64,000 nucleotides of DNA from an uncultured Eubacteriales bacterium. Lineage in GTDB: Bacteria > Acidobacteriota > Aminicenantia > Aminicenantales > Aminicenantaceae. The DNA lies in the NCBI GenBank assembly GCA_964611275.1, contig CAZSZS010000040.1:2992-66991 (forward strand). Reading direction: 5' to 3'. Shown in pieces: positions 1 to 50,073 of the stretch. How positions within the stretch are numbered: the stretch's first letter is position 1; each line of letters begins with the position of its first letter. Below the pieces are notes generated by a model that was not told the DNA's origin, made no database searches, and saw nothing but the letters and a program-made list of their open reading frames with translations. The translations under genes were made by a program, and so were the position numbers.

Positions 1-1
1 C

Positions 2-1240: not shown

Positions 1241-1287
1241 CCGCCTGATCCAACAATAACAGACGGGGACATCCTATAATTTTTTTC

Positions 1288-1316
1288 TTGACAAAGCTTT
1301 GCTTTGGGATTATCTT
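1288..1316 (+). promoter_or_regulatory. Candidate sigma70-type promoter of lexA, with a 10-bp palindrome CAAAGCTTTG (1292-1301) overlapping the -35/spacer
   Basis: TTGACA (1288-1293), a 17-nt spacer, then TATCTT (1311-1316), about 20 nt upstream of the lexA ATG. The palindrome sits where a repressor operator would. Confidence 0.35.
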
Positions 1317-1336
1317 ATCTAATACAGGTGAACAAA

Positions 1337-1951
1337 ATGGTGAACAGACAAAGGCTGGAATTGACCGAAAGGCAAAAAAAGGTTCTGCAGGCAGTGGAGG
1401 ATTTCATCCGGAAGCACGGCTATGCGCCTACCATACGGCGGCTGGCCGGGATACTCGGCATTCAAAGCCCCTCCGCCGTGTTCAAGCATATCTCCAGTAT
1501 AGAGAAAAAGGGTTATCTGAGAAAAGAGGGAGGGGAGCTCAAGCTCGCGGGAGCCTCTTCTTTGGAGCCTCATGTCCAGGTGCCTTTGGTCGGCCTGGTC
1601 CCTGCCGGAGATCCCAGGGAGGTCTTTGACAGCAGGGAAGAGGCCGTGGATGTTCCCGAGTGGATGCTGGGGCGCAAGAAGGGAAATGTTTTCTGTGTTC
1701 TTGTCGAAGGGAAAAGCATGGTGGATGCTTATATAGACGACGGGGACAGGGTTCTTTTGGAGAGGACCCATACGGCTCATTCAGGAGAGATGGTGGTGGC
1801 CTTTCTCGATGACGGTTCCATAACGTTAAAGAGACTAAAGATCGATAACGGGAATATTTTTCTGGTCCCTGAGAATCCTGAGTTCAAACCCATACAGGTC
1901 TCAGAACTGAAAATAATCGGGCGGGTTATCGGAGTCCTGCGGAAGTACTGA
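1337..1951 (+). CDS. lexA: LexA repressor (S24 self-cleaving peptidase)
   Basis: N-terminal winged helix (GYAPTIRRLAGILGIQSPSAVFKHI). Ala-Gly cleavage site in VPLVGLVPAGDP. Ser-Lys dyad motifs GKSMVD and LKRL. ATG at 1337 is preceded by AGGTGA; the ORF-track TTG at 1304 is less likely. Confidence 0.93.
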   Translation: MVNRQRLELTERQKKVLQAVEDFIRKHGYAPTIRRLAGILGIQSPSAVFKHISSIEKKGYLRKEGGELKLAGASSLEPHVQVPLVGLVPAGDPREVFDSREEAVDVPEWMLGRKKGNVFCVLVEGKSMVDAYIDDGDRVLLERTHTAHSGEMVVAFLDDGSITLKRLKIDNGNIFLVPENPEFKPIQVSELKIIGRVIGVLRKY

Positions 1952-1997
1952 CCCGGTCGGCCCGGCTTTCCGAGTTTAAAAATAAGGAGCGATAGAA

Positions 1998-3221
1998 TTG
2001 AGAAGACGGTGTATTGTCCATATTGATATTGATGCTTTCTTTGCCTCTGTGGAAAAGCTTCTGGACCCCTCTCTTGAGGGAAAACCTGTTATCGTGGGCG
2101 GACTTCCTCATGAAAGAGGCGTTGCGTCCACAGCTTCCTATGAGGCCAGAAAGTACGGGGTGCATTCGGGCATGCCGCTGCAAAAGGCTTATCAGCTCTG
2201 CCCTAACGGCATATTTATAAGGGGCGACCACCGGGTCTATACGGCTTTTTCCAGGAATTTCCGTCGGATCCTTTCGCGGTACACTCCGGATATGGAGATG
2301 GCTTCCCTGGATGAGGCTTATCTGGACCTCAGCCGCTGTGGCGCGCTTTATTCCTCATTCTCAAGAACGGTCGCTCAGATAAAGCAGACCGTGGAGAAAA
2401 AATTAAGACTCTCTGTGTCCGTGGGCGTAGGGCCTAACAAGACTATAGCCAAGCTGGCAACCAACAGAGCCAAACCCGGGGGGCTGGTGGAAGTAAAACC
2501 GGGCTGCGAGGAGTCCTTTCTTAAGGAGCTTCCCATAGAGGCTCTTCCGGGAATCGGCTTCAAAGCCCGGGCTGAACTTGATATGCTCAACATACGGAAG
2601 ATCAAAGACCTCTGGGGGCTGCCCAGGGAGGCTCTGAGGACACTTTTCGGATTAAGGGGAGAGGAGATCCGTCTTCAATCCCATGGTATTGACGACCGGC
2701 CTCTGGAGTCATCCGGAGAGCAGAAATCGATTTCGCGTGAGACCACATTTCTCAAGGATATATGGGAGAGGCGGCTCCTTCTGGCTCACCTGGCCTATCT
2801 TTGTGACCGTTTGAGTTTGGCTCTGAGAAAAGACCGTTGCTTCAGCCATATCATAGAGGTCAAGGTCAGGTGGTCTGATTTCAAGACCGAAGTCCGCCGC
2901 AGGCTTCTGGTGAATCCGGTCCAGGAAATGGATGATATCTACCGGATAGCCCGGGAGCTGTTTTTAGAGCTTTTTAAGGGAGCTCGTTTGTCACTCCGTC
3001 TGGTGGGAGTCAAGTCTTCTGACCTGGTCAGAAGCCGGACCCTTTCGCTTTTTGAGCCTCACTCTCTCCATAAAGAACGTCTGGGCACGGCTGTTTTCGA
3101 AGTGAGAGAGAAATACGGGTTTGGCTCCCTTCTTACCGCCAGGGAGAAGATGCTGGACGATGTGTACGGCTTCACAAAGAAGCGCGGTTTTATACTGAAA
3201 ACAGCTTCTCTCACCAAATAG
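1998..3221 (+). CDS. dinB: Y-family DNA polymerase IV (DinB-type), catalytic residues intact
   Basis: N-terminus IVHIDIDAFFASVE and SLDEAYLD (catalytic Asp/Glu), LPGIG helix-hairpin-helix. TTG start follows AAGGAG (1984-1989). Confidence 0.9.
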   Translation: MRRRCIVHIDIDAFFASVEKLLDPSLEGKPVIVGGLPHERGVASTASYEARKYGVHSGMPLQKAYQLCPNGIFIRGDHRVYTAFSRNFRRILSRYTPDMEMASLDEAYLDLSRCGALYSSFSRTVAQIKQTVEKKLRLSVSVGVGPNKTIAKLATNRAKPGGLVEVKPGCEESFLKELPIEALPGIGFKARAELDMLNIRKIKDLWGLPREALRTLFGLRGEEIRLQSHGIDDRPLESSGEQKSISRETTFLKDIWERRLLLAHLAYLCDRLSLALRKDRCFSHIIEVKVRWSDFKTEVRRRLLVNPVQEMDDIYRIARELFLELFKGARLSLRLVGVKSSDLVRSRTLSLFEPHSLHKERLGTAVFEVREKYGFGSLLTAREKMLDDVYGFTKKRGFILKTASLTK

Positions 3222-3283
3222 CCTCTGGCTTTTGTCATTTTTAACGGAACAGGTCATGGTTTTTGGAGGTCAATGAGAAAGTG

Positions 3284-6088
3284 ATGTTTGTTCCCCTGCG
3301 GGTTCACTCCGTGTACAGCAAAGGCAAAGGGAGTGTGCTTCCGGATGAGCTGGCTTTCTGGGCAAAAGACAGGGGAATGGCTGCGGCATGTCTTTCAGAT
3401 AGGGAGGTTTTTTACGCATGGGGACGCTGGAAGGAAGCAGCCCGCAGAAACAAAATAGTCCCTTTGTACGGCTGTGAATTGACCGTCCAAAAGAGAAAGC
3501 TTCTGTTTGTGGTTAAAAACCGGACCGGATACTGGAACCTGATGGAGATCTTTAACAGCAGGGAGATAAAACAGGTCCGGGGTCTTGTGGTGGTCTATAT
3601 CCCCCAGGCGGGGGAGAGTGAGTTTCCGGAGGGGCTCAAAGCCGCGGCTGGTCCGGATTTCTACCTGGGAGCGGATTTTCAAAACTTTGAAAAGGTAGTG
3701 CACTGGGCCGGGGTGTACTCTCTGCCCGGGGTTTGGGCCAATCCCCTGAAGTTTATTGGAAATCCGAAAAGGCTTATCCTTACTCACTCTATCCATGAAA
3801 AACGGCCTTTCCCTCCGGAATGGACAAAATGGAAGTCCCGGATGAAGTTTTTCGGCCCGCTCCAGCAGGAATTGGCACTGAAAAAGTTTGGCAGCAAAGT
3901 CAGTGAGTTTTTTAGAAGGACTCTTGAAGTGGCTGAAAAGTGCTCTTTCACTCTGGAAAACATCGTTCCCGGACTGCCTGAAGGCCTTTTCCCAGAGTCG
4001 TTCAGGGATATGGTCATGAAAACAATGCAGCAGAAGAAATCCCTGAGCTGGAGAGAGAGGCAGCGGGCGCGGATAGAGCTGCAGGCGGTTGAAAAAACAG
4101 GATTCGGTCCTTATTTCCAGGTGGTCCATGATGTGGTGCGTTTTGCACGGCGGGAGGGGATCCTTTATAATCTCAAAGGCTCCGGGGCCTCTTCTTTTCT
4201 GGCCTATCTTCTGGGGATCTCCCATATCAATCCGGTTGATTTTGACCTTTATTTTGCCCGGTTTTTAAACCAGGGCCGGAAGGACCCTCCGGATTTTGAC
4301 CTGGACTTTGATTCCAGATACAGAGACCGGGTGCTGGAGTATGTTCTGGAGAATTACGGAAAGGGAAAAACTGGGGCGGCTTTTGTGTGCAGCCTCAAAA
4401 ACTACCGGGCCCGTTCCGCTGTTTATGAAACGGCGCGGGCATTTGGCCTGCCTCCGGCAGAGTCGAGGGCGCTCAGCAAGAAGGTCCCCTATTTTGTGGA
4501 GCCTGATTATCTGAAAAAGCATCACCCTCCGCCCGGCTGTAAGGAGATCTGGAGGGCTGCCTCGGAATTGACTTCGGTCTACGGTGAAAGTTCTCTTCAT
4601 GTGGGAGGTGTTCTTTTGACACCCCCGCCGGTCAGCCGGTATCTTCCTCTGGAAAAATCAGCAAAAGGCCTCATCATGTGTCATTTTGACCGGGATGCGG
4701 TGGAAGATTTGAAGCTCATTAAGCTGGACCTTCTTTCCGTACGAGGGCTGGCCGCGATTTCCGGGACGAAAAATGAGCTGAACATAAAGGATATTCCATG
4801 GAATGACAAAAAGAGCTTTCTCCTTCTCTCCCGCGCACAGACCATAGGATGCTTTCAGGTCGAGAGTCCGGCCATGATGAATCTGCTTTCCCGAATGAAG
4901 CCGGATGATATCTACGGGCTGACCCAGGCTTTAGCGTTGATCCGGCCGGGGCCGACGCAAAGCGGGACAAAAAAGGCCGTGCTCCAGGCGCGTGAGGGCA
5001 GGTCATCTGCCAATGACCCGTTTTTCTCCGGAATCATTCCTGAGACCGGAGGGCTTCTCCTTTATGAAGAGCAGGTCATGCAGGTGGCTGAGAGAGTCGC
5101 CGGCATGAGTTCAGAAGAGGGAGACACACTGCGCAGGGAACTGAAAAAGAAATCGCCCTGTCCCGCCTTGAAAGATAAGTTTTTTCAAGGAGCGCAAAAG
5201 CGAGGATACACACGCACCGAGATAACAAAGATATGGAATCATATGGAGCAATTTTCTTCCTACTCTTTTAATAAAGCTCATAGTGCCTCCTATGCGTGCA
5301 TGGCTTATCAGTCCGTTTATTTAAAAGCCCATCATCCTCTGCCGTATCTCAAAGCTGTTTTGAATGCCGGCGGAGGTTATTACAGCCTCCCGGTCTATAT
5401 AGAGGAAGCCAAAAGGCTTGGGATCAAGGTTCTGCCCCCGGATGTCGCACACAGTGATTATGACTTCGAAGAGGAGGGCTCCTGCATAAGGGTGGGGCTT
5501 TTGTCCATAAAGCGCCTTAAGACCAGCACGGCCAAAAAGATAATAGAAGAACGCCGAAAAGGCCCTTACCGCTCTCTGGATGATTTTCTTGCCAGGGTTT
5601 CTGTGACCAGGGCGGAGCTTTTCTCTCTGGTCAAGTCAGGGGCTTTGGACCCGTTGGAGCCCCGAAGGGCAGAGCAGGTCCTGAATGGTTATAAAGGCAG
5701 CGGAGGAACAGAAAAGATTCCCGAGATGGAAAAGGCACGGAAAGAGAAGATGCTGATTGACTCTCTGGGGTTTGATCCCACAGGAGATGCTCTCAATCTT
5801 TTTAACGCGAAAAGGCCGGCTCTGCGGATCAAAGACCTGGAATACAGGGCCGGACAGATCGTGGAGCTTATGGTCCGGGTTATGGACGCGCGCAGGAAAA
5901 AGGTCAGGCAGGGGGAAACGTATTTCTTTCTTTTTTCAGACGAAACAGGCATGATCGAAGGAGCAGGCACAAAGAAATGTGTTCCTTTTGGTTCGCCGCC
6001 GGCCTGTTATGTGCGGGGCAGGATCCGCAGGAGCGAGAACGGGCGCGTCAAGATTTTCAACTGTGCTTTTCTCTCTTTGCACGAGTGA
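3284..6088 (+). CDS. dnaE2: Error-prone DNA polymerase III alpha-like subunit (DnaE2-type, short form)
   Basis: Pol III alpha core motifs: PDFDLDF, IRPGP, FNKAHSASYA. C-terminal OB-fold-like region. About 935 aa is too short for replicative DnaE. The PHP N-terminus is degenerate (PLRVHSVYS). Start is uncertain (ATG 3284, GTG 3281 or TTG 3263). Confidence 0.8.
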   Translation: MFVPLRVHSVYSKGKGSVLPDELAFWAKDRGMAAACLSDREVFYAWGRWKEAARRNKIVPLYGCELTVQKRKLLFVVKNRTGYWNLMEIFNSREIKQVRGLVVVYIPQAGESEFPEGLKAAAGPDFYLGADFQNFEKVVHWAGVYSLPGVWANPLKFIGNPKRLILTHSIHEKRPFPPEWTKWKSRMKFFGPLQQELALKKFGSKVSEFFRRTLEVAEKCSFTLENIVPGLPEGLFPESFRDMVMKTMQQKKSLSWRERQRARIELQAVEKTGFGPYFQVVHDVVRFARREGILYNLKGSGASSFLAYLLGISHINPVDFDLYFARFLNQGRKDPPDFDLDFDSRYRDRVLEYVLENYGKGKTGAAFVCSLKNYRARSAVYETARAFGLPPAESRALSKKVPYFVEPDYLKKHHPPPGCKEIWRAASELTSVYGESSLHVGGVLLTPPPVSRYLPLEKSAKGLIMCHFDRDAVEDLKLIKLDLLSVRGLAAISGTKNELNIKDIPWNDKKSFLLLSRAQTIGCFQVESPAMMNLLSRMKPDDIYGLTQALALIRPGPTQSGTKKAVLQAREGRSSANDPFFSGIIPETGGLLLYEEQVMQVAERVAGMSSEEGDTLRRELKKKSPCPALKDKFFQGAQKRGYTRTEITKIWNHMEQFSSYSFNKAHSASYACMAYQSVYLKAHHPLPYLKAVLNAGGGYYSLPVYIEEAKRLGIKVLPPDVAHSDYDFEEEGSCIRVGLLSIKRLKTSTAKKIIEERRKGPYRSLDDFLARVSVTRAELFSLVKSGALDPLEPRRAEQVLNGYKGSGGTEKIPEMEKARKEKMLIDSLGFDPTGDALNLFNAKRPALRIKDLEYRAGQIVELMVRVMDARRKKVRQGETYFFLFSDETGMIEGAGTKKCVPFGSPPACYVRGRIRRSENGRVKIFNCAFLSLHE

Positions 6089-15690: not shown

Positions 15691-16014
15691 ATGTTTAAAC
15701 ATGCAAAAAAAGATCATCCGAGCGTAGAGGTTTTTAAGGGTGTTGTCCGAACGACCTTAGGGTGTGGAAAAGATGTTCTTATGGCTCGATTCGATTATAA
15801 GAAAGGCTCTCAAGTCCCCCCTCATAGGCACTCTTATGAACAAGTAACGGTCATTATTAAAGGGAAGCAAAAAGTCATTATAGATAACAAGGGGGAGAAA
15901 GAAGAGATTATACTGGAAGAAGGGGATTCCTATATGGTTCCAGCCTCATTTGAACACGAGCAATTCAATCTTGAGGATACGGTGACCATAGATTCTTGGA
16001 GCCTTGCTCCCTAG
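15691..16014 (+). CDS. Cupin domain protein
   Basis: 107 aa. PPHRHSYEQVTVIIKG ... YMVPASFEH (cupin motifs 1 and 2). Good RBS GAGGAG. Confidence 0.7.
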   Translation: MFKHAKKDHPSVEVFKGVVRTTLGCGKDVLMARFDYKKGSQVPPHRHSYEQVTVIIKGKQKVIIDNKGEKEEIILEEGDSYMVPASFEHEQFNLEDTVTIDSWSLAP

Positions 16015-16322
16015 GGGTTTTCGTTTTTCTTTCTGGACTCGAGAAATTTATTTCGACATTCCTTTGAACAAAAGTAATATTCTTTTCCTTTGTGTATTTC
16101 TTTTATGGCATCTTCTTTAGGAAGATACGTATTACAGACTTGATCTTTGACCATGATCCCGGGTTTTGAGCTTGGTTTTTGGGGAGGCTTTTTTGCCCGT
16201 TTTAATGACTGATAGGTTTTGACGACGATGTATATCAAATAGGCAATCATCGCATAGAAAATGACTTTGAATAATCCGGACATAATGGATATAAATTTAG
16301 ATGATTTAGCCTTGTATGTCAA
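16011..16322 (-). CDS. Membrane-anchored YHS/TRASH-type metal-binding domain protein
   Basis: N-terminal TM helix, then VCNTYLPKEDAIKEIHKGKEYYFCSKECRNKF (YHS-like Cys pattern). Confidence 0.6.
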   Translation of the reverse strand: MTYKAKSSKFISIMSGLFKVIFYAMIAYLIYIVVKTYQSLKRAKKPPQKPSSKPGIMVKDQVCNTYLPKEDAIKEIHKGKEYYFCSKECRNKFLESRKKNENP

Positions 16323-31928: not shown

Positions 31929-32004
31929 GGGGCTGTAGTTCAGTTGGGAGAACGCTTGACTGGCAGTCAAGAGGTCGTGGGTTCAAATCCCATCAGCTCC
32001 ACCA
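31929..32004 (+). tRNA. tRNA-Ala (anticodon GGC), CCA encoded
   Basis: Hand-folded cloverleaf. Acceptor GGGGCTG/CAGCTCC with the Ala-identity G3:U70 pair. Anticodon stem CTTGA/TCAAG with loop CTGGCAG. T-arm GTGGG-TTCAAAT-CCCAT. Discriminator A plus CCA. Confidence 0.9.
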
Positions 32005-40498: not shown

Positions 40499-43400
40499 AT
40501 GGGAACATTGAATAAAAACATGAAAGCATGGCTTGAGGAGAAATTCATTCAGAGAGTCAACTTCAACCCGTATGAAAGACTTCTTTACAGCCATGATATT
40601 GCGGCCATGCCTAAACTGGTGAAGCCCCTTATCGGGAATACGGTCCCTGATGCCGTGGTCCAACCGGAAAATGAACAGGAATTATCCGAACTTATCAGAT
40701 GGGCTGCAGAGAAGAGAATACCGCTGGTCCCAAGAGGAAAAGGGTCATCCGGATACGGAGGGATCATCCCGACAAAAAAAGGGATCGTCATCGATTTTTA
40801 CCGGATGAAGAGGGTCGTGTCAGTGGATGAAAAACAAATGCTGGCAGTAGTGGAACCCGGAATAACCTGGGAACAGCTGGATAGAGAGCTGGCTAAAAAA
40901 GGCCTCACCGTACGTCTTTACCCTACCAGCTACCCTTCTTCGTCCGCCGGGGGATGGCTCGCCCAGGGCGGAGCGGGCATAGGCTCTTTTGAGTACGGAT
41001 GGTTTTCAGACAATGTCAAAAGCGCGAGGATCGTCCTTCCTGATGGGAAGATAAGAGATCTCTCTGGAAAGGAGATGGAGCTTGTGGCTGATGCAGAGGG
41101 GACCACAGGAATTATAAGCCGGCTGACAGTTCATGTGCAGAAACTGGAAAAAAACCATGTAACTGCTTTTGCCTGTCCCGATGCTCATTCCCTTTCCCGG
41201 ATTTTTCAGGAAATCATAGACCGGAAACTTCCGGTCTGGTCTGTGGTTTTTATAAATCCACGCATGGCCGAAATGAAAAATCGATCTCCTCTGCTCGAAA
41301 AGCATGGTCACCCTGTAGAAGAGAGGGTGATACTTCCGGCCGCTTATATCACGACCCTTGCCTTCAGGGAAAAGGATCGTGATGAGATCATGGGAAAACT
41401 GGCCGGAATCATCAAGAAGTGCGAAGGAGAGATGCTCAGCCAGAGGATCGCCGACCATGAATGGAAAAATCGATTCAAATTGATGATCGTCAAGAGGCTT
41501 GGTCCCTCTCTTGTTCCGGCGGAGGTAGTGGTTCCTTTGGATAAATTAGGTGATGTCATGGAGGAGATCGAGAATAAAGTGAACCAGCCGGTGGTCAAGG
41601 AAGGCGTCATTATAAAAAAAGGAAGAGACGGAAAAGCCGAGGCTGTCATCCTGGGTTTTATCCCCAGTGACCAGCGGAAATTTTCCTATAATTTTGTTTT
41701 CGGGCTAGTGCTGACTATCATGAAGATCGCTAAAAAATACGGGGGGCGGCCTTATTCGACCGGATTGTATTTTTCCGGAGAGAAAGGCAAGGTTCTTGGG
41801 AAGAAGAGAAGCACAGAGATCGAAAAATATAAGAAAACAGTCGATCCGCATAAAATTTTAAATCCGGATAAGGTCGTGAAAAAGAATGCGGTAAGCAGAG
41901 CGTTGAGCTTTGCCAAACTTTTTGAGCCTTTTGTGAGACCATTCGGCAATACGGTGGTCACCCGAGTAGGAGAGTACTTTGAAAAACCGGTGAGAGGGAT
42001 TCCGGCCGATGTGGCCAGATATGCCTATGGCTGTTCCCAGTGCGGTTACTGTCTGGATGAGTGCGACCAGTTTTTTGGCAGGGGATGGGAGAGCCAGTCG
42101 CCACGCGGGAAATGGTACTGGCTTCGCGAATACATGGAAGGAAAGGTCGAATGGAACCAATTTATGGTCGATACCATGATCGCCTGCACGACTTGTGAGT
42201 TCTGTGACATTCGCTGTTCCGCATCGCTTCCCATAGAGTCATCCTGGATGAAATTAAGGGGAAAATTGATCCATGAAGACAAAAAGATGACCTTTCCTCC
42301 TTTTGAGATGATGGCTGCTGCTTCCAGATCTCAAGGAAACATATGGGCAGGGTATCGAAAAGACCGCACAGCCTGGTTTCCAAAAGAATTGAAAGAAAAA
42401 CACGGGCCTGGGAAAAAGAGCAAAAATATCTATTTTGCCGGATGCACGGCTTCTTATGTCGAACACGATATCGGAGCGGCTTCTGTGACCCTGCTGGATG
42501 CGGCTGGGGTAGATTTTTCCTATCTCGGGACTAAGGAAAACTGCTGCGGCACTCCCATGCTGGTGGCGGGGAAATGGGATGTGTTCAAAGAGATCATGCG
42601 CAGAAACATAGAAGCTGTCAAGGAAGCCGGAGCGGATACAGTGATCTCGTCCTGTCCGGCTTGTGACATGATGTGGCGTCACTATTACCCGCAATGGGCG
42701 GATAAACTCAATATGGATTACAACATAAAAGCCAAACACTACAGCGAAGTGATTTCAGAAAAGCTGAAAAAAGGAGAGTTTAAATTCACCCATGCGCTGA
42801 AAGGCAAGGTGACCTGGCATGACTCCTGTCATATCGGACGTGTCTCAGGAGTCTACGAAGAACCCAGGGATATTATTAAGGCCGTTCCGGGAGTTGAGTT
42901 TGAGGAGATGGCTCACAACAGGGAAGAAGGACACTGCTGCGGAAGCGTATTGACTTTACTAAAAGACCCTCCTATAGCGGCTGACATAGGAAAGTCAAGG
43001 ATGGAGGAAGCAAAGGAGATCAATGCAGAGACTGTTCTTGCTCTTTGCCCCTGCTGTGAGTTCCAACTAAGGGTCACAGAGGAAAAAAAGAAACTGGGGC
43101 TGGAAGTCAAAGACTTAGCCACCTTTGCCTGTAAAGCTTTGGGAAAGGAGTTTAAAGATCCGAGCCCCGAAGTGGCCAAGCAGTGGGCTGTTTTTGAAGC
43201 CATGATCGAGCTTATGACACCTGAGGGATTTGCCAGCCTTATGGCTTCCATGTGGCCCGAGCTCTTGGATGCCATGCCCCTGGGAATGGGGAAGATGATG
43301 CGGGCTATAGGGAAGATGGGAGTATTCGGTGGTTTTTTATTGGGTCTGATGAAACCGGTATTTCCTGTGCTGTTCCCAAAACTTCTGCCTGGCATGATGC

Positions 43401-43582
43401 CAAAAGTCATGCCCAAGATGCTGGAGAAGATAGAAGAAAGGATTCCCATGCCTGATTATATGGCAGAGCAAATGCCGGATATGATGCCCGGAGTCATGGA
43501 TAATCTGATGCCGCATATGCTGCCCGATGTGGTTCCTCTGGTTGTGCCTGAAATGATATCTTATCTTAGAAGCCGGGCTTAG
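40499..43582 (+). CDS. FAD-binding oxidase (GlcD-like) fused to a 2x[4Fe-4S] and double-CCG (GlcF/HdrD-like) module, with a Met/Pro-rich C-terminal tail
   Basis: FAD_binding_4 motif PLVPRGKGSSGYGG. CSQCGYCLDEC and CTTCEFCDIRC cluster motifs. CCG motifs (ENCCGTP, GHCCGS). The last ~126 aa are unusually Met-rich. Confidence 0.85.
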   Translation: MGTLNKNMKAWLEEKFIQRVNFNPYERLLYSHDIAAMPKLVKPLIGNTVPDAVVQPENEQELSELIRWAAEKRIPLVPRGKGSSGYGGIIPTKKGIVIDFYRMKRVVSVDEKQMLAVVEPGITWEQLDRELAKKGLTVRLYPTSYPSSSAGGWLAQGGAGIGSFEYGWFSDNVKSARIVLPDGKIRDLSGKEMELVADAEGTTGIISRLTVHVQKLEKNHVTAFACPDAHSLSRIFQEIIDRKLPVWSVVFINPRMAEMKNRSPLLEKHGHPVEERVILPAAYITTLAFREKDRDEIMGKLAGIIKKCEGEMLSQRIADHEWKNRFKLMIVKRLGPSLVPAEVVVPLDKLGDVMEEIENKVNQPVVKEGVIIKKGRDGKAEAVILGFIPSDQRKFSYNFVFGLVLTIMKIAKKYGGRPYSTGLYFSGEKGKVLGKKRSTEIEKYKKTVDPHKILNPDKVVKKNAVSRALSFAKLFEPFVRPFGNTVVTRVGEYFEKPVRGIPADVARYAYGCSQCGYCLDECDQFFGRGWESQSPRGKWYWLREYMEGKVEWNQFMVDTMIACTTCEFCDIRCSASLPIESSWMKLRGKLIHEDKKMTFPPFEMMAAASRSQGNIWAGYRKDRTAWFPKELKEKHGPGKKSKNIYFAGCTASYVEHDIGAASVTLLDAAGVDFSYLGTKENCCGTPMLVAGKWDVFKEIMRRNIEAVKEAGADTVISSCPACDMMWRHYYPQWADKLNMDYNIKAKHYSEVISEKLKKGEFKFTHALKGKVTWHDSCHIGRVSGVYEEPRDIIKAVPGVEFEEMAHNREEGHCCGSVLTLLKDPPIAADIGKSRMEEAKEINAETVLALCPCCEFQLRVTEEKKKLGLEVKDLATFACKALGKEFKDPSPEVAKQWAVFEAMIELMTPEGFASLMASMWPELLDAMPLGMGKMMRAIGKMGVFGGFLLGLMKPVFPVLFPKLLPGMMPKVMPKMLEKIEERIPMPDYMAEQMPDMMPGVMDNLMPHMLPDVVPLVVPEMISYLRSRA

Positions 43583-44352
43583 ATCACAACCGCATCCACA
43601 AACAGTTCATAGGTATTGTCTTCGTCAAGGTCGTGGATTTTTACCTTTTCAACTTCATTAAGGCCCATTATCCCGACAAGTTCGGATTCAGAGAGAATTT
43701 TAACATTTGCTTGTTTGAGCTCAGCCTTGAGATCGTCTGCAACATTTTTGGATTTTTTCTGAGTTAAAAAGACAACTCTAGGAGAATACTTGGCTAAGGC
43801 TCGGGCCAGCTCTCCGGATTCTTTTCCTTTATCCTGGATAAGAATCCTTTTTTCCTTTAATAAAGAAGGGTCTTTGATTTTATGATAAACTCCCTTTCCT
43901 GAGAAGTCTTTTTCTCCCGGGATTTTCTTCATGGAAGGGCTTTTGACCTCTTTTTCATTTTCCTTTTTTTCTTTTTGTTTTTCTTTGTAATTTTTTATGG
44001 CTGTTTTAAGGGCATCGGCAGCCAGATTTGAACAGTGCATTTTTACCGGAGGAAGCCCGTCCAGTTCATCCGCCACATCCTGTCGGGTTATTTTAAGGGC
44101 TTCATCCAGAGTCTTCCCTTTAGCTAATTCTGTCACCATAGAGGCGGTGGCCACAGCTGAACCGCAGCCGAATGTTTTGAATTTAATATCTTGGATCCGG
44201 TTGTTTTTGACTTTCAATGTGAATTCCATAAGGTCCCCGCACACAGGATTTCCGACCGTGCCTTTGGCTATATCTTTCCCTGTTAAAGTGCCCACGTTCC
44301 TGGGATTGCGGAAATGGTCCAAAACTTTTTTAGAATATGATGTTGATTTCAT
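43579..44352 (-). CDS. iscU: IscU/NifU-N Fe-S scaffold fused to a degenerate thioredoxin-reductase-like NAD(P)H subdomain
   Basis: IscU ligands GNPVCGD, FGCGSAVATAS, HCSNLA. Lys/Glu linker. The C-terminal ~105 aa align by eye to the TrxB NADPH domain (KRILIQDKGKESGELARALAKYSPRVVFLTQKK...VKIHDL...YELFVDAVVI). Confidence 0.8.
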   Translation of the reverse strand: MKSTSYSKKVLDHFRNPRNVGTLTGKDIAKGTVGNPVCGDLMEFTLKVKNNRIQDIKFKTFGCGSAVATASMVTELAKGKTLDEALKITRQDVADELDGLPPVKMHCSNLAADALKTAIKNYKEKQKEKKENEKEVKSPSMKKIPGEKDFSGKGVYHKIKDPSLLKEKRILIQDKGKESGELARALAKYSPRVVFLTQKKSKNVADDLKAELKQANVKILSESELVGIMGLNEVEKVKIHDLDEDNTYELFVDAVVI

Positions 44353-44379
44353 TTTTATCCTCCTCTCTTTTTTTCCTGG

Positions 44380-45531
44380 TTAATAGATCGGGGAAAGCTT
44401 TCTTAATCTGTCAACGACTTCAGGCAGAGCCTTTATGACAGAATCAATATCGCTTTCCTTTGTAAACCTGCCTGTGGTGAGTTCCAATGAGCCGTGTGCT
44501 TCTTCGTGAAGCAAACCCATGGCGATCAGTGTATGAGAGGGCTCCAGTGTTTTTGAGGAGCAGGCTGAACCTGTTGAAACAGCTATCCCCTTGTCATTCA
44601 GTGACAGAAGCAGTGATTCGCCTTCGATCCCGTCGAAACGAAAATGAGCGTTGTTGGGCAGCCTGTTTTCAGGGTGCCCGTTAAGATAGGACCTTGGAAT
44701 ACTTTCTAAGATCTCTTTGATCAGCCTGTCTCTGAAAGACTGTAATTTATGGGCTTCCTCTTTTCTTTCCTGCATCACGATCTCTGACGCACGGGCCATT
44801 CCTGCGATGGCCGGCAGGTTTTCCGTGCCGGAGCGGATTCCGTTTTCCTGTCCTCCGCCAATGATCTGCGGCATCAACTTGATTCCTTTTCTTACATAGA
44901 GAACTCCCAATCCTTTGGGTCCGTAAATATCATTCGATGATAGGGTCATCAGGTCTATGAAATCTTTTTGGACATCTAGGGCAAGGAGCCCTTCGGCTGC
45001 CACAGCATCGGTATGAAAAGCGATGTCTCTTTCTCTGCACAAGCGGCCTATTTCCTTTATGGGCTGGATCGTACCGACTTCATTGCTGGCATAGCCTATG
45101 GAAACAAGAAGGGAGTCATCTGTGAGCCGCTCAATTATTTTATCCGGATGCACTCTTCCGTAGTGGTCTACAGGGACCTTTGACACTTTAAATCCGGATT
45201 TCATGAGAAACTTAGCTGTGTTGTGTATGGATATATGCTCTGTTTCTGAGAGGATGATGTGCTTTCCCTTACCTTTGTTTTTGAGCGCATAGCCAATAAG
45301 CGCCAGGTTATTGGACTCGGTGGCACCTGATGTGAATATGATTTCGTCAGGTTCGGCTTGAATGAAGCCTGCGATTGTGGAACGGCTTTTATCAAGAGCT
45401 TCTGTGGCTTGGTCTCCTATGGAATGCAGCGACGATGGATTTCCGAATGTTTCATTGAAATAGGGATCCATGGCTTTAACGACCCTTGGGTCTACAGGTT
45501 TTGAGGATTGGTAGTCAAGGTAGACATTCAT
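44380..45531 (-). CDS. iscS: NifS/IscS-family (class V aminotransferase fold) protein lacking the PLP-binding lysine
   Basis: FTSGATESNN, SETEH, HTDAV, catalytic-loop SACSS, HGSLELT. The canonical SGHKIYGPKG is SSNDIYGPKG here (Asp codon GAT at 44929-44931). Confidence 0.85.
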   Translation of the reverse strand: MNVYLDYQSSKPVDPRVVKAMDPYFNETFGNPSSLHSIGDQATEALDKSRSTIAGFIQAEPDEIIFTSGATESNNLALIGYALKNKGKGKHIILSETEHISIHNTAKFLMKSGFKVSKVPVDHYGRVHPDKIIERLTDDSLLVSIGYASNEVGTIQPIKEIGRLCRERDIAFHTDAVAAEGLLALDVQKDFIDLMTLSSNDIYGPKGLGVLYVRKGIKLMPQIIGGGQENGIRSGTENLPAIAGMARASEIVMQERKEEAHKLQSFRDRLIKEILESIPRSYLNGHPENRLPNNAHFRFDGIEGESLLLSLNDKGIAVSTGSACSSKTLEPSHTLIAMGLLHEEAHGSLELTTGRFTKESDIDSVIKALPEVVDRLRKLSPIY

Positions 45532-45546
45532 TTGTTTCTCCTTTTT

Positions 45547-45906
45547 TTAAAACCACATGGTTGTGTCAGATTCAAGAGCCAGGTCATTCAATGTGCCGGC
45601 TCCCACGATCTTCAAACCCGGGATAAGGTTGGCCTTTTCCATGCCCAGCATTTGTTTGGAGGCTTCGCAAACGTATATTTCTATGCCCATATCAAGCGTA
45701 TTTTTAATGACTTCTGATAAAGCAGGAAAGGAACCGGCTTTAATTTTCTCAGCAGCTCCAGGCTTTAAAACTCTCAGTCCCTGGCCCAGATAATAAATCT
45801 TAGCATCAATATCCATGGCCTTTGCGGTCTGGGCTAGGACAAGTGGGGAGTACTGCCTTTCCGGGTGATCACTTGTTTGAACATAAAGGATTGAATCTTT
45901 TTTCAT
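45547..45906 (-). CDS. DsrE/DsrF-like sulfur-relay family protein
   Basis: 119 aa. DsrE fold pattern with conserved Cys in IYVCEASKQM. Adjacent to tusA. Confidence 0.7.
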   Translation of the reverse strand: MKKDSILYVQTSDHPERQYSPLVLAQTAKAMDIDAKIYYLGQGLRVLKPGAAEKIKAGSFPALSEVIKNTLDMGIEIYVCEASKQMLGMEKANLIPGLKIVGAGTLNDLALESDTTMWF

Positions 45907-45915
45907 TCTTGCCTC

Positions 45916-46158
45916 CTATTTTATTTTTTTTATCAAGAACCGCATGGATTCATCTCTTTTTTCGAATGAGATGATCTCATGGCCTGTTCTTTTTGCAAAC
46001 CTCTTTATATCTTCCTCAGCAGCCGGGTCATCTGCCAGAACTTCCAGGATTTCTCCTTTTTCGATGCTGTCTATGCTTTCTCTTGTCTGGAACAAAGGTT
46101 CAGGACAAAAAAGTCCGATACAATCAAGGGTTTTTTGGGGTTTATTTTTTGATGACAT
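45916..46158 (-). CDS. tusA: TusA/SirA-family sulfur carrier
   Basis: 80 aa. LDCIGLFCPEPL contains the CPxP active-site motif. Confidence 0.85.
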   Translation of the reverse strand: MSSKNKPQKTLDCIGLFCPEPLFQTRESIDSIEKGEILEVLADDPAAEEDIKRFAKRTGHEIISFEKRDESMRFLIKKIK

Positions 46159-46385
46159 CGCTTCACCCTCCTATGAGTTATAAATCCTATAGAAATTGTA
46201 GGATATGTATAATATAAGGCTTTTATCCCCCTTTGTCAACCTCATATTTTCTTATTTTTTTTATATTCCAGTCAACCTTTTTGTCGGGTTTTACGTCTTA
46301 TATACAGAAGTTCGAAATTTTCGAAGTGCTCATTGGGCATGAAAAAAATGAAATTTTCAAAAGAGTCAATAATAAGGAGCCAAGC

Positions 46386-46715
46386 ATGAAAACCTTTACC
46401 AAAAAAGAAGAGCAGATCCTCCTGGCAATTTACCATCTCAAAGATAAAGCCTATCTGATCCCTATTCGGGAAATGATAAAGAAATTTACGGGAAAATACT
46501 ATTCTGTGGGCACCATCTATGCCCCTCTGAACCGTCTCCATAGCTGTGGTTATTTGAAGACGTATGTGGAAAAGCCCGAATCCTCCTCCGGAGGCAAACC
46601 TATCAAATATTACTGCCTGACCAAAGACGGATTGGAAGCCCTGGAATCTCTTAAAAGACAGAATGAGTTGATGTGGGAAGGCTTTAAGGTGCCTGCTTTT
46701 GGCGACAAGAATTAA
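46386..46715 (+). CDS. PadR family transcriptional regulator
   Basis: ILLAIYHLKDKAYLIPIREMI...YYSVGTIYAPLNRLHSCGYLK (winged HTH). ATG 46386 preceded by AAGGAG. The upstream part of the track ORF is not credible. Confidence 0.85.
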   Translation: MKTFTKKEEQILLAIYHLKDKAYLIPIREMIKKFTGKYYSVGTIYAPLNRLHSCGYLKTYVEKPESSSGGKPIKYYCLTKDGLEALESLKRQNELMWEGFKVPAFGDKN

Positions 46716-46717
46716 TC

Positions 46718-49294
46718 ATGAAAAAAGCAAAACCCCGTATACCTGGATTGGCCTTTGGATTCCTTAAGCGAATTCTTCCAAAAGAGGACTCTGTATATTT
46801 GAGTGAAAATTTCAAGGAACTGTACGAGTACAGAGTGAAAACAGGGGGCCGGTTCAAAGCGGGGATATGGTTCTGGGGAGAAATTTTAAAATCCCTGCCT
46901 GGATTTTTATATTCAGCACTTTACTGGAGGTATATGATGTTTAAAAATTACTTTGTCGTTTCAATAAGAAATATCCGCAAACACACACTTCACTCCATCA
47001 TTAATATTGCAGGAATGTCTTTGGGCCTTTTTGTCTGTCTGCTCATTTTTCTCTGGGTTCAGAATGAAATAGGGTTTGACAGGTTTCATACACAAAGAGA
47101 CGACATTGCCCAGGTCTATTCCGAAACCCTGTATTCAAATGGAAGCACTCAGGTTTTCATGGGCTCTTACTATCCTTTGGCGAAGATTTTGAAACAAGAA
47201 TGCCCTGAGGTCAGGGAGGCGGTCCGGTATGAAACCGCAAACGGCATTTCCTTGAGATATAAAGATAAGCAATTCACCAATGATACCGTCGGCCTGGCTG
47301 ATCCCGCCTTTTTTGATATCTTTTCCTTCTCTTTTATCAAAGGCGATCCTGAGCTGGCCCTGCAAAACAATTATTCCGTTATTCTAACGGAAAAAATGGC
47401 CAGAAAATATTTCGGAAATGATGAGCCTATTGGAAAAACACTCACTTTGAACAACGAAGTGGATATCCAGGTCACAGGTGTCATCGAAGATGTTCCATCG
47501 CAGTCTTCACTCCAGTTTAACTGTGTCGCTCCTTATGTTCTCAAGTATGCTCCGGATTTTAAAGAGCCTGAACACTGGGGAGGAAATCCTCTTGCAACTT
47601 ACGTCCTGCTGCAAAAAAACAGTGATCCTTCTCAACTGGAACAAAAAATCACATCCATTGTGGACAAACACGCTCAGTGGGAAACTGCAGAGGTCTCTTT
47701 TTATTTGCATCCCCTGAAAAAAATGCACCTCTATTCTCCCCAGGGAGGCGGTTTGATCCAGTCCCTGTTGATTTTTTCCGCCATTGCCCTCTTTGTTCTC
47801 TTTATTGCCATCATCAACTTTGTGAATCTGAGCACAGCTAAAGCAGCCACCCGGGCCAAGGAAGTGGGAGTCCGCAAAGTAGTAGGGGCCAGGAAGAGAG
47901 AACTTATCCAGCAGTTCATGGGCGAATCCCTGATGATCTCTCTCATCACACTGATCATTGCCGTCTTACTTCTGGCCGTCTTTCTCCCCTCTTTTAACCA
48001 GTTTGCGGGAAAACAATTTTCGCTTCATCTTCTGCTCAAACCCGAAGTGGCTCTTGGGTTTTTAGGCATGGCCCTGATTACAGGATTTCTTGCCGGAGTG
48101 TATCCGGCTCTTTACCTCTCCAATATCCAACCCAGAAGTATCATGAAAGGTCTTGCTGGAGTACGGAATAAAGGTTCTTTACGCAAAATTCTGGTCGTGT
48201 CCCAGTTTTCTCTTTCCATTATCATGATCATCAGTACAGTTGTGGTCTTCAGACAATTAAACTATATGATGAGCACAGACCTGGGTTTTGACAGAGAAAA
48301 TCTGATCGTTCTCCCGATGAGCCAGAGAATCCAGGAGGGATTCGAACCTCTGCGGAACGAATTATTGAGCGATCCTCAGGTCGAAAGCGTGACAAAAAGC
48401 CTTCAGGGCCCATGGCATATCGGATCCACTGTACGTGCAGTGGACTGGGATGGAAAGCCTGCGGATGAGACGATCTATATGCATTGGGATTATGTGGGAT
48501 ACGATTATTTTTCAACCTTAAAAATGGATATCATTGAAGGCCGGGCTTTTTCCAGAGAATTTCCTACAGACCTCAAAGAGGCATACATCGTAAATGAGGA
48601 AGCCGTGAAACTCATGGGAATGGAATCTCCGGTCGGAAAGCGGCTTTCGGTTTTTCAGAATCAAGGTCAGATCATCGGCGTGGTGAAAAATTTCCACTTC
48701 CAGCCCCTTTATCATGAAATAAAACCATTTGTCTTTATGCTGAGGCCTGATTCCAGTTCCCTGGCTTTTATGCGGATAAGACCGGAAAACGTATCCGGAA
48801 CTCTGGAGAACATTCGGACCATTCTGGCCAAACACAATCCCGGATCAAAAGGAGATTTGCTTTTCTTTAATGATATTCTCTCCCGGTATATCTACACTGC
48901 AGAGGAGCAAACAGGAAAAATTGCCGGGTACTTCACTCTTCTTGCCGTGCTTATATCCTGCATAGGGCTTTTTGGCCTGGCTGCTTTTATGGCCGAACAG
49001 CGCACCAAAGAGATCGGCGTTCGAAAAATTGTGGGCGCTTCCATGAAGAATGTGGTGTTTATGCTGACCAAAGACTTCACCAAATGGATTTTGCTGTCCA
49101 ATATTATCTCCTGGCCCGTGGCTTATCTTATCATGAAAAACATTCTTGAAAAGTACTCTTACAGAACACACATCGGGCCGGAGCTGTTTATTTTGTCAGG
49201 TCTTGCCGCTTTTATCGTAGCTTTACTGACCGTCAGCTTTCTGGCTTTTAAAGCAGCACGTGCCAATCCTGCTGACTCTCTCCGGTATGAATAA
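46718..49294 (+). CDS. Duplicated FtsX/MacB-type ABC permease (ADOP-like); no ATPase gene adjacent
   Basis: 858 aa. Two MacB_PCD-like periplasmic regions and two FtsX 4-TM modules (…EIGVRKVVGA…, …EIGVRKIVGA…). Starts 2 nt after the padR stop. Confidence 0.85.
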   Translation: MKKAKPRIPGLAFGFLKRILPKEDSVYLSENFKELYEYRVKTGGRFKAGIWFWGEILKSLPGFLYSALYWRYMMFKNYFVVSIRNIRKHTLHSIINIAGMSLGLFVCLLIFLWVQNEIGFDRFHTQRDDIAQVYSETLYSNGSTQVFMGSYYPLAKILKQECPEVREAVRYETANGISLRYKDKQFTNDTVGLADPAFFDIFSFSFIKGDPELALQNNYSVILTEKMARKYFGNDEPIGKTLTLNNEVDIQVTGVIEDVPSQSSLQFNCVAPYVLKYAPDFKEPEHWGGNPLATYVLLQKNSDPSQLEQKITSIVDKHAQWETAEVSFYLHPLKKMHLYSPQGGGLIQSLLIFSAIALFVLFIAIINFVNLSTAKAATRAKEVGVRKVVGARKRELIQQFMGESLMISLITLIIAVLLLAVFLPSFNQFAGKQFSLHLLLKPEVALGFLGMALITGFLAGVYPALYLSNIQPRSIMKGLAGVRNKGSLRKILVVSQFSLSIIMIISTVVVFRQLNYMMSTDLGFDRENLIVLPMSQRIQEGFEPLRNELLSDPQVESVTKSLQGPWHIGSTVRAVDWDGKPADETIYMHWDYVGYDYFSTLKMDIIEGRAFSREFPTDLKEAYIVNEEAVKLMGMESPVGKRLSVFQNQGQIIGVVKNFHFQPLYHEIKPFVFMLRPDSSSLAFMRIRPENVSGTLENIRTILAKHNPGSKGDLLFFNDILSRYIYTAEEQTGKIAGYFTLLAVLISCIGLFGLAAFMAEQRTKEIGVRKIVGASMKNVVFMLTKDFTKWILLSNIISWPVAYLIMKNILEKYSYRTHIGPELFILSGLAAFIVALLTVSFLAFKAARANPADSLRYE

Positions 49295-49380: not shown

Positions 49381-50073
49381 CTATACGGGCTCAAATTCGT
49401 CCTTAGATGCCCCGCACACCGGGCAGACCCAATCGTCAGGGATATCTTTAAAAGCGGTTCCCGGCTCGATTCCGCTGTCAGGATCGCCCTTTTCCGGTTC
49501 ATAAATATATCCGCACACTGTGCATCTGTAAGATTTCATTTTTGTTTTCTCCTTTTTTTCCGTGTTTTTTTCTTTAACATAAGTGGGCGCATTTTTGTCT
49601 GTCTTGCCTTTTTTGACCTCATGATAATAGGAGTAGGTAAGGGGTTCCCCCTGTTTCAGTTTTTCTGCTTCAATCAGCTTTCCCACAAATGCAGTGTGAG
49701 TGCCCACGTCTAAAGCCTCTGTCACTTCACATAAAAGATACCCAAGAGTGTTCTCGGTCAGATAGGGGATGCCTTTTTTCCCTGTTTTGTAGCCGACTTC
49801 CTTGAATTTATCGAATTCACGGCCCGACCTGAAACCAAAAGTCCCGATAAACTTAAGAGGTGTGTCCTTTTCTAAAATTGAGACCGAGAAAACTTTGCTT
49901 TCAGTGATATAGTTATGTGTGAGATTTTTTTTATTGAGGCATACCAGAATTTTAGGGGGCTCTGCGGTGATCTGAGTCACAACATTTGCTATCTGGCCGT
50001 TGTATTTTTCTCCCTTTTTGGAGCTTATCACATAAACTCCATAGCTGATATCGAACAAAGTGGTTATATCCAT
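49381..50073 (-). CDS. Flavin reductase domain fused to C-terminal rubredoxin (high-molecular-weight rubredoxin type)
   Basis: Flavin_Reduct-like N-terminus. C-terminal [16 protein letters not shown]...[14 protein letters not shown] rubredoxin. Confidence 0.85.

Follow-up and report, generated by a model that had tools for sequence, protein, structure and literature searches.

The minimal iron-sulfur system (MIS), composed of MisS and MisU, was reportedly defined by Garcia et al. in 2022. It is described as having no accessory components, with MisS acting as a cysteine desulfurase (PMC13066941, a 2026 review). Structures have been solved for the IscS2-IscU pair of Archaeoglobus fulgidus (PDB 4EB5/4EB7 and 4HVK; 4R5F is an engineered D199K variant of IscS2). 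A. fulgidus IscS (AfIscS) has no desulfurase activity owing to a substitution of lysine by aspartate, and its cysteine is a ligand of the [2Fe-2S] cluster on IscU; Methanosarcina acetivorans IscS1 likewise does not have the lysine (PMC7585200; PMC13066941). Here, we describe a locus of this kind in DNA from an uncultured bacterium of the Aminicenantaceae (assembly GCA_964611275.1, contig CAZSZS010000040.1, positions 2,992 to 66,991 of the forward strand); the whole stretch of 64,000 nucleotides that was analyzed is referred to as the window. It carries four genes, tusA, dsrE, iscS and iscU, in which a lysine-less (Asp-type) IscS is preceded by two putative sulfur carriers. On balance, we lean towards the view that this operon encodes a cysteine-independent Fe-S cluster assembly system of the MIS type, fed by a sulfur relay from DsrE via TusA and Cys324 of the IscS-like protein to IscU. 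Comparative support for this view comes from the linkage of the two carrier genes to iscS, which is specific to Asp-type loci. The elements of the locus, in window positions, are the following.

46211-46239, minus strand: sigma-70-like promoter candidate (TTGACA-17 nt-TATATT, 11/12 consensus matches)
45916-46158, minus strand: tusA, 80 aa (PF01206, E 3.4e-25, 88.1 bits against a cut-off of 28.6)
45547-45906, minus strand: dsrE, 119 aa (PF02635, E 1.3e-16, 61.2 bits against a cut-off of 22.7)
44380-45531, minus strand: Asp-type iscS (alias MisS), 383 aa (PF00266, E 4.1e-73, residues 3-350)
43579-44352, minus strand: iscU, whole gene, 257 aa, starting 27 nt 3' of iscS
43969-44352, minus strand: iscU scaffold domain, residues 1-128 (NifU_N over residues 6-128, E 1.2e-50, 171.3 bits)
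43579-43929, minus strand: iscU C-terminal tail, residues ~142-257 and the stop codon, with a degenerate thioredoxin reductase (TrxR) NADPH-domain fold

The open reading frames (ORFs) bear out the arrangement proposed in a first-pass annotation of the window, which had described four co-directional and closely packed genes at 43579-46158. They follow each other in the order tusA, dsrE, iscS, iscU with 9, 15 and 27 nt between genes, and an AGGAGG-like Shine-Dalgarno site lies 5' of all four start codons. The promoter candidate, which is a consensus match only, is the top-scoring site of the region and is located ~53 nt 5' of the tusA start codon. No terminator-like sites were found on the minus strand in the three intergenic gaps, and no Rfam match for a regulatory RNA was obtained upstream of tusA or near the operon. 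The four genes therefore look like a single transcription unit. The families assigned at the time (TusA, DsrE, class-V aminotransferase and NifU_N) were all matched far beyond chance.

The IscS-like protein has the class-V aminotransferase (IscS/NifS) fold over its full length (PDB 4eb5_A, E 2.4e-137, residues 3-383). Its motif reads TLSSNDIYGPKG where Lys-type enzymes have ..HK.YGPKG, and the Schiff-base lysine for pyridoxal 5'-phosphate (PLP) is replaced by Asp201 (motif SSNDIYGPKG, in agreement with the pattern SSND[ILMV]YGP[KR]G). The mobile-loop cysteine, Cys324 (TGSACSS), is kept and is present in 118 of 118 Asp-type sequences. Both features had been recognized in the first-pass annotation; the lysine-less IscS is real, but it is not a novelty, as A. 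fulgidus IscS2 is already known and structurally solved. The window protein and A. fulgidus IscS2 (PDB 4eb5) share 55% identity, an identical SSNDIYGPKG motif and the SACSS loop. Its nearest named relatives are proteins from 'Candidatus Aminicenantes' metagenome-assembled genomes (MAGs), at no more than 92% identity. SSND is found in 114 of its 120 top relatives, the remaining six falling outside the search pattern, and in all 119 natural top relatives of AfIscS2. As judged from these sequences, the Asp-type proteins are a large and coherent clade.

A position-by-position comparison of ~120 Asp-type with 100 Lys-type sequences showed that three PLP contacts have changed together in the Asp-type proteins (Q183A/H205N/K206D, E. 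coli numbering), at positions where the Lys-type group has Q/H/K in 100/100. The equivalents of Thr76, His104, Asp180 and Ser203, as well as the loop Cys, are invariant in both groups. The PLP-pocket positions that are invariant across the ~120 Asp-type sequences are residues 71, 99, 175 and 198 of the window protein. Structural reasons may account for the retention of this pocket, or it may still accommodate some ligand. Because of the 55% identity to AfIscS2 and the same substitutions, we infer that the window protein binds no PLP and is inactive as a cysteine desulfurase. A second class-V aminotransferase was not found elsewhere within the window. We also considered whether a genuine desulfurase is encoded as an IscS paralog beside Asp-type genes, and rejected this: what looked like doublets proved to be ORFs that are split or frameshifted, or else distant aminotransferases without the Lys-region and loop-Cys motifs of IscS.

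The two putative carriers are as annotated at first pass, namely a TusA with a CPxP motif and a DsrE-like protein with a conserved cysteine in IYVCEAS. The active cysteine of TusA, Cys18, lies in CPEP and is invariant in 85/85 cluster-linked TusA proteins; the aspartates D43, D44 and D50 are kept in 84, 84 and 83 of 84 linked sequences. As the window protein scores below the cut-off of the E. coli-type NCBIfam equivalog NF001423 (69.1 vs 78 bits), its assignment as a tRNA-thiolation TusA is not possible. A second cysteine, Cys13, is located five residues before Cys18 (CIGLFC; CxxxxCPxP) and occurs in 71 of 86 cluster-linked proteins; an equivalent is not known from E. coli TusA. The additional cysteine might permit a disulfide, a trisulfide or a metal site.

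DsrE has a single conserved cysteine, Cys80, invariant in 66/66 linked homologs, so that the presumed sulfur-carrying cysteines of TusA, DsrE and IscS are all invariant. The likeness of the window protein to DsrE3A is drawn from one solved relative, SSO1125 (PDB 3mc3, E 1.4e-12, with the cysteine aligned), which is the closest of known structure and is treated as DsrE3A-type (PMC11094781). The score of the window DsrE for the DsrE2 equivalog is 36.6 bits and thus below DsrE2 (cut-off 210). For DsrE3 proteins, loading with sulfur from polysulfide or thiosulfate and onward transfer to TusA have been reported, the reverse transfer being slight or absent (PMC11094781).

Conservation of the gene linkage was assessed in at least 120 Asp-type loci, from one genome per GTDB species, identified by DNA encoding [ST][ST]ND[ILVMF]YGPKG. 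Neighboring six-frame ORFs were searched with the window proteins in 8-kb blocks that are not centered on the gene; as detection was by single-sequence phmmer, divergent carriers may be missed. For the carriers, 80 loci with at least 1.5 kb 5' of iscS are informative, and for IscU 92 with sufficient sequence downstream. TusA is encoded 5' of iscS on the same strand in 66/80 informative loci and DsrE within 1.5 kb on the same strand in 46/80; one or both carriers are present in 69/80 and both in 44/80. IscU directly follows iscS in 73/92 loci, and the commonest order is tusA, dsrE, iscS, iscU, the same as in the window. The linkage of TusA is seen in both domains (12/15 informative loci in Bacteria and 54/65 in Archaea). 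The bacterial loci include Aminicenantes, Deltaproteobacteria/Thermodesulfobacteriota, WOR-3, Stahlbacteria and Spirochaetota. The archaeal loci include Bathyarchaeia, Thor-, Hermod- and Promethearchaeota, Atabeyarchaeia and Hadarchaeota, as well as Thermoplasmata, Methanomassiliicoccales, Methanocellales and Methanosarcinales/Methanoperedens. When Lys-type controls were sought in the same archaeal phyla, each close relative retrieved was Asp-type.

As a control, we used 118 Lys-type loci from metagenome contigs matching HK[ILVMF]YGPKG, a different collection that comes without taxonomy. Neither TusA nor DsrE was found anywhere in these 118 loci, and IscU followed iscS in 35/72; the difference from the Asp-type loci is significant for TusA (Fisher, p = 7e-23) and for DsrE (p = 3e-13). 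Independent gene calls with Pfam labels gave an identical order of the four genes on a 2.8-Mb WOR-3 chromosome and two other contigs, and the four genes are likewise present in a 90%-identical Aminicenantes relative (P0009). Thus, the genes that had been proposed to form a unit in the window are indeed co-conserved, with carriers at 69/80 Asp-type and 0/118 Lys-type loci. Clustering of the neighbors at 120 loci gave TusA, DsrE, a small TRASH-like protein, flavodiiron proteins, a membrane protein and small ferredoxin-like ORFs as conserved neighbors; none of the IscA, HscB/HscA or ferredoxin genes of the canonical ISC operon was among them.

A related arrangement exists in A. fulgidus itself (AE000782, 506338-519486), where the order is feoB fragments, a gene for the C-terminal domain of an iron-dependent repressor, a dsrE-like ORF, iscS2 and iscU. 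The dsrE-like ORF is directly 5' of iscS2, and its product, in which the cysteine is retained, shares 49% identity with the window DsrE. The nearest tusA is located ~6 kb upstream. In Ferroglobus placidus the order is tusA, Asp-type iscS, iscU. The A. fulgidus gene context appears to have remained unused in published work on AfIscS. On the 3' side of A. fulgidus iscU we noted a gene for a 112-aa helix-turn-helix protein with a C-terminal CxxC (region L249:3379-7958).

Based on the linkage and on the known chemistry of these families, we propose the following sequence of events. The single conserved cysteine of the DsrE3-like protein would take up sulfane sulfur (polysulfide, thiosulfate or another persulfide), which the protein would hand over to TusA, in the direction published for DsrE3/TusA of sulfur oxidizers. 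TusA would then dock on the Asp-type IscS and trans-persulfidate the loop Cys324, from which the sulfur would be delivered to IscU for assembly of a [2Fe-2S] cluster. The Asp-type IscS would generate no persulfide from cysteine, but would still bind IscU and offer its loop Cys to the nascent cluster, while TusA and DsrE would stand in for the lost desulfurase chemistry. Fe-S clusters would thus arise without desulfuration of cysteine. In E. coli, structural work has established that TusA docks beside the loop Cys of IscS, and IscU is a competitor for this IscS (PMC2854127), which makes an alternating donor/acceptor cycle on the Asp-type IscS structurally plausible. A relay from TusA/DsrE through IscS to IscU had been put forward in the first-pass annotation; the co-conservation of carriers with Asp-type genes specifically lends it comparative support, whereas the movement of sulfur along the chain, with its direction and source, and the role of the IscU tail are what we infer.

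Several points speak against this relay. The transfer itself is deduced from gene linkage and chemistry, and for AfIscS-IscU it has been proposed that sulfide is used directly or formed non-enzymatically (PMC7585200; PMC13066941), a model that would require no carrier. Asp-type IscS shows no specific conservation of the residues that form the IscS-TusA interface in E. coli: among those compared (IscS W45, E49, D52, R55 and D65; TusA R27 and R31), W45 and E49 are variable, and the positions that are conserved in Asp-type pairs are equally so in Lys-type IscS. If TusA docks on the Asp-type IscS, it may therefore do so differently. Sulfur flow in E. coli, from IscS to TusA, is opposite to the direction proposed here. 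Approximately 14% of the informative loci (11/80) have neither TusA nor DsrE, and the counts are not phylogenetically independent, as related archaeal MAGs (Bathyarchaeia) dominate and the control collection differs. In A. fulgidus, the dsrE-like ORF is N-terminally short, with in-frame stops upstream, and no tusA is adjacent. Finally, a desulfurase may be encoded elsewhere in the genome; the search covered the 64-kb window, where none was found.

The published view of AfIscS leads to an alternative in which sulfide enters directly, the Asp-type IscS is a structural partner that provides a cysteine ligand, and the co-expressed TusA and DsrE have a task of their own, in parallel and without any handover; such a task could be buffering or detoxification of sulfane sulfur, or feeding of other thiolation pathways. 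MIS and SMS are both said to be able to use sulfide (PMC13066941), and DsrE4-type proteins have been proposed to have a part in detoxifying reactive sulfur species (PMC11094781). The frequent location of the module among oxidative-stress genes and the poor conservation of the TusA-binding residues known from E. coli would also fit, and the invariant loop Cys of IscS is compatible with direct sulfide as much as with a relay. We nevertheless consider direct entry of sulfide, a serious rival, to be rather unlikely: carriers unconnected with the lost desulfurase function would hardly account for a linkage that is so specific to the Asp-type (0/118 Lys-type loci), with tight packing and a fixed order. 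A reversed logic, with TusA as end acceptor and distributor of sulfur for tRNA 2-thiolation or molybdenum cofactor (Moco) synthesis and IscS-IscU as a cluster-based sulfur source or sensor, appears improbable. E. coli TusA canonically accepts sulfur from IscS for tRNA and Moco, and genes for FdhD and a QueC/NAD-synthase-like PP-loop protein lie in the neighborhood of A. fulgidus iscS2. However, unbiased clustering revealed no conserved thiolation enzymes (MnmA, TtuA, ThiI, MoeB/MoaD) in the neighborhoods, IscU retains all cluster ligands, and an IscS that cannot generate persulfide is no donor without an upstream source. Even less credible is an Asp-type IscS that is an active desulfurase after all, using non-covalent PLP or another general base, with TusA and DsrE as ordinary downstream acceptors. 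The invariant Thr76, His104, Asp180 and Ser203 equivalents of the PLP pocket would favor it; the concerted replacement of three PLP contacts, including the Schiff-base lysine, and the reported inactivity of the 55%-identical A. fulgidus ortholog (PMC7585200) argue in the other direction.

A further possibility refines the relay reading and does not compete with it. The module could be back-up Fe-S machinery of strict anaerobes, induced by oxygen or reactive oxygen species, with a role resembling that of E. coli SUF; its source would be sulfane sulfur derived from oxidized sulfide, and a protein-bound relay would avoid the chemistry of free sulfide and iron. We consider this possible, though less likely than not. 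On three bacterial contigs, one of them the WOR-3 chromosome, the four genes are co-directional within a long island of stress genes:

L244/L245:110-13068, island contig
L246:203-12327, island contig
L248:437-12787, island contig

The islands contain genes for rubredoxin, a flavodiiron protein, rubrerythrins, ferritin, desulfoferrodoxin and a hybrid-cluster protein, and further for glutaredoxin, an FTR-catalytic-subunit-like protein, AhpC and a heavy-metal ATPase with a YHS protein. More generally, oxidative-stress-type genes are present at 37/120 Asp-type vs 3/120 control loci (p = 1e-9), flavodiiron genes lie beside the module in archaeal loci (~16/120 overall), and in the window a flavin-reductase-rubredoxin gene is found 3 kb from the operon. 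On the other hand, two-thirds of the loci have no stress-type neighbors inside the 8-kb blocks, the window operon is flanked by unrelated genes, and the putative regulator next to it is PadR-like, not PerR- or OxyR-like. The company of oxidative-stress genes hints that the module may serve chiefly where clusters need rebuilding after exposure to oxidants; that sulfide is then partly oxidized to sulfane sulfur is speculation.

The acceptor of the proposed relay, IscU, has the domain and the ligand set of a scaffold protein. The cluster ligands Cys38, Cys63 and Cys107, together with Asp40 and His106, are each kept in at least 94% of sequences, and the scaffold matches PDB 7c8m (E 2.2e-52 by sequence, 3e-17 by Foldseek) as well as 4eb5_C. 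Its score for TIGR03419 (185.8) is slightly below the cut-off of 187.9. In the AlphaFold model, built on 60 homologs (mean pLDDT 80.9, pTM 0.70), a low-confidence and disordered Lys/Glu-rich linker (residues ~129-141) connects the scaffold with the C-terminal tail, an alpha/beta domain that has a pLDDT of ~80-93. Foldseek matches of the tail are the NADPH domains of TrxR (2zbw, E 1.6e-10; also 3f8r and 4zn0), and similarity is detectable by sequence as well (PDB 3f8d, E 9e-5; NCBIfam TIGR01292 over positions 115-231, E 1.7e-11, with a score of 43.5 vs a cut-off of 343). The fusion is widespread: proteins of ~257 aa with 61-96% identity make up at least 120 clusters.

The tail had been described as an extra redox-like domain, of which the TrxR fold stands and the redox character does not. 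It has no CxxC (YHKIK where TrxR has CATC), no glycine-rich GxGxxG/A motif and no HRRxxxR, and it is devoid of cysteine in 111 of 121 homologs. As the CxxC and the glycine-rich loop are missing and cysteines are mostly absent, the tail appears degenerate and non-catalytic, and is unlikely to be redox-active itself; a redox role was therefore dismissed despite the fold. Most likely, it serves in docking or regulation.

In 31 archaeal Asp-type loci, a gene for a Cys-rich protein of 55-60 aa (CxxC...FCCxxC) lies directly 3' of iscU. It was found by the unbiased clustering of all neighboring ORFs and matches the metal-binding TRASH/YHS domains weakly, with one sequence above the cut-off of PF24273. 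Examples, all outside the window in archaeal loci, are the following.

L063:5330-5527, plus strand: TRASH-like small protein
L098:2125-2391, plus strand: TRASH-like small protein
L072:2979-3176, minus strand: TRASH-like small protein

Among the loci listed, the TRASH-like protein (31 loci) and the IscU tail (22 loci) never occur together. The small protein could be a donor of metal, possibly iron, or a functional alternative to the tail, and the exchange of one for the other in many archaea hints at a role of the tail in recruitment of a partner or of metal. A YHS-domain ORF of 103 aa is also present in the window (16014-16322, minus strand; PF04945, E 2e-9), distant from the operon.

In the window, the operon has the following unrelated neighbors.

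40499-43582, plus strand: GlcD-HdrD-like fusion, 1027 aa, with FAD_binding_4, a 4Fe-4S dicluster and two CCG (HdrD/GlcF-like) domains
46233-49294, plus strand: PadR-like regulator and overlapping 858-aa MacB/FtsX-type permease, divergent from the operon
49381-50073, minus strand: flavin-reductase-rubredoxin fusion, ~3 kb from the operon, the nearest stress-type gene in the window

The HdrD/GlcF-like gene does converge on iscU with overlapping stop codons, as had been annotated; its product ends in a Met/Pro-rich C-terminal segment of ~120 residues. The suggestion that this enzyme is a client or electron partner of the module had to be abandoned. It was found near the module in three near-identical Aminicenantes loci only (L001-L003, via P0009) and in 0/120 of the genome loci listed, and is therefore placed outside the module, being unlinked beyond close Aminicenantes relatives. 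Similarly, the PadR-like gene was rejected as a general regulator of the module, as it was seen in Aminicenantes only (4 loci). The listed ORF begins with TTG, and the true start of the PadR-like gene probably lies inside it. The layout of PadR/MacB genes and flavin-reductase-rubredoxin fusion is kept in the 90%-identical Aminicenantes relative (L001). Elsewhere in the window, positions 1-6000 have a G+C content of ~0.51, compared to ~0.42-0.46 in the remainder, and the sole RNA gene is a tRNA-Ala at 31929-32004, with no rRNA or other Rfam family.

Where the sulfide of the cluster comes from was not explained by the structures of AfIscS-IscU, and the linkage of carriers to Asp-type genes offers a concrete hypothesis that is directly testable with proteins that have already been crystallized. 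Thousands of genes annotated as 'cysteine desulfurase' would have to be re-annotated, as their products are probably not desulfurases, and Fe-S biogenesis would join dissimilatory sulfur oxidation and tRNA thiolation as processes served by TusA/DsrE relays. More tentatively, the module might represent a distinct and ancient route to Fe-S clusters, in which TusA, DsrE, Asp-type IscS and IscU, together with either the TrxR-like tail or the TRASH protein, use protein-bound sulfane sulfur in place of PLP-dependent desulfuration of cysteine, as a form of MIS with accessories that is preferentially employed alongside oxidative-stress defenses. Such a route would be widespread among anaerobic archaea (Bathyarchaeia, Asgard archaea, Hadarchaeota, Methanosarcinales and Archaeoglobales) and in the Bacteria (Aminicenantes, WOR-3 and Desulfobacterota). 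If true, this would name the sulfur source of lysine-less IscS systems and add an accessory-containing form to MIS. The lineages concerned, Asgard archaea included, bear on scenarios for the early evolution of Fe-S assembly.

Among the known systems close to the window module is A. fulgidus IscS2-IscU: the IscS proteins belong to the same clade, iscU is directly 3' in both, the window IscU matches 4eb5_C, and a dsrE-like gene directly precedes iscS2. The module differs in having a full-length DsrE and an adjacent TusA, where A. fulgidus has a shortened dsrE-like ORF and a distant tusA, and in the 115-aa TrxR-like tail of IscU, which AfIscU does not possess. As far as our literature search showed, DsrE and TusA have not been considered as sulfur donors for AfIscS-IscU in published work. 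With MIS, the module shares an IscS-like and IscU-like core without IscA, HscBA and Fdx, in anaerobic archaea and bacteria. In contrast to MIS, defined by MisS and MisU only and by an active desulfurase, it has TusA and DsrE as partners and no catalytic lysine, and therefore falls outside that definition. The same is true for most Asp-type loci, in which TusA and DsrE are fixed partners, often with the TRASH protein or the TrxR-like tail. Compared to low-molecular-weight TrxR, the tail shares the fold of the NADPH domain and detectable sequence similarity, but it is an isolated domain that has neither the FAD domain nor the CxxC, GxGxxG/A and HRRxxxR motifs of these enzymes.

Like the E. coli IscS-TusA relay (PDB 3LVJ), the module combines a CPxP TusA with a partner of the IscS fold, and the mobile-loop Cys is the site of transfer. 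In the E. coli Tus system, cysteine-derived sulfur passes from IscS to TusA, so that the flow in the window module must be reversed or absent; moreover, the E. coli Tus genes are unlinked, and Asp-type IscS does not conserve W45 and E49 of the interface. The DsrE3-TusA cascades of sHdr and rDsr pathways (Metallosphaera cuprina DsrE3A/TusA, Hyphomicrobium DsrE3C/TusA) resemble it in the adjacent dsrE-type and tusA genes and in the single conserved cysteine of DsrE, and the DsrE3A-type SSO1125 is the closest solved structure to the window DsrE. The acceptor in these cascades is the dissimilatory sHdr or Dsr machinery, whereas in the module it would be a biosynthetic IscS-IscU pair. Unlike the cascades of sulfur oxidizers, the module has no linked hdr, dsr or lbpA genes, and its hosts are anaerobic heterotrophs, relatives of methanogens and Asgard archaea. 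The gene combination had been suspected to be undescribed as a unit, and full-text literature searches indeed returned no paper on tusA-dsrE-iscS-iscU, although subscription papers may hold an earlier mention; the TrxR-like tail and the TRASH protein as additions to Asp-type IscS-IscU are likewise undescribed in the searchable literature. All component families and the Asp-type IscS-IscU pair are already known, and what appears to be new is the fixed association of this pair with TusA and DsrE.

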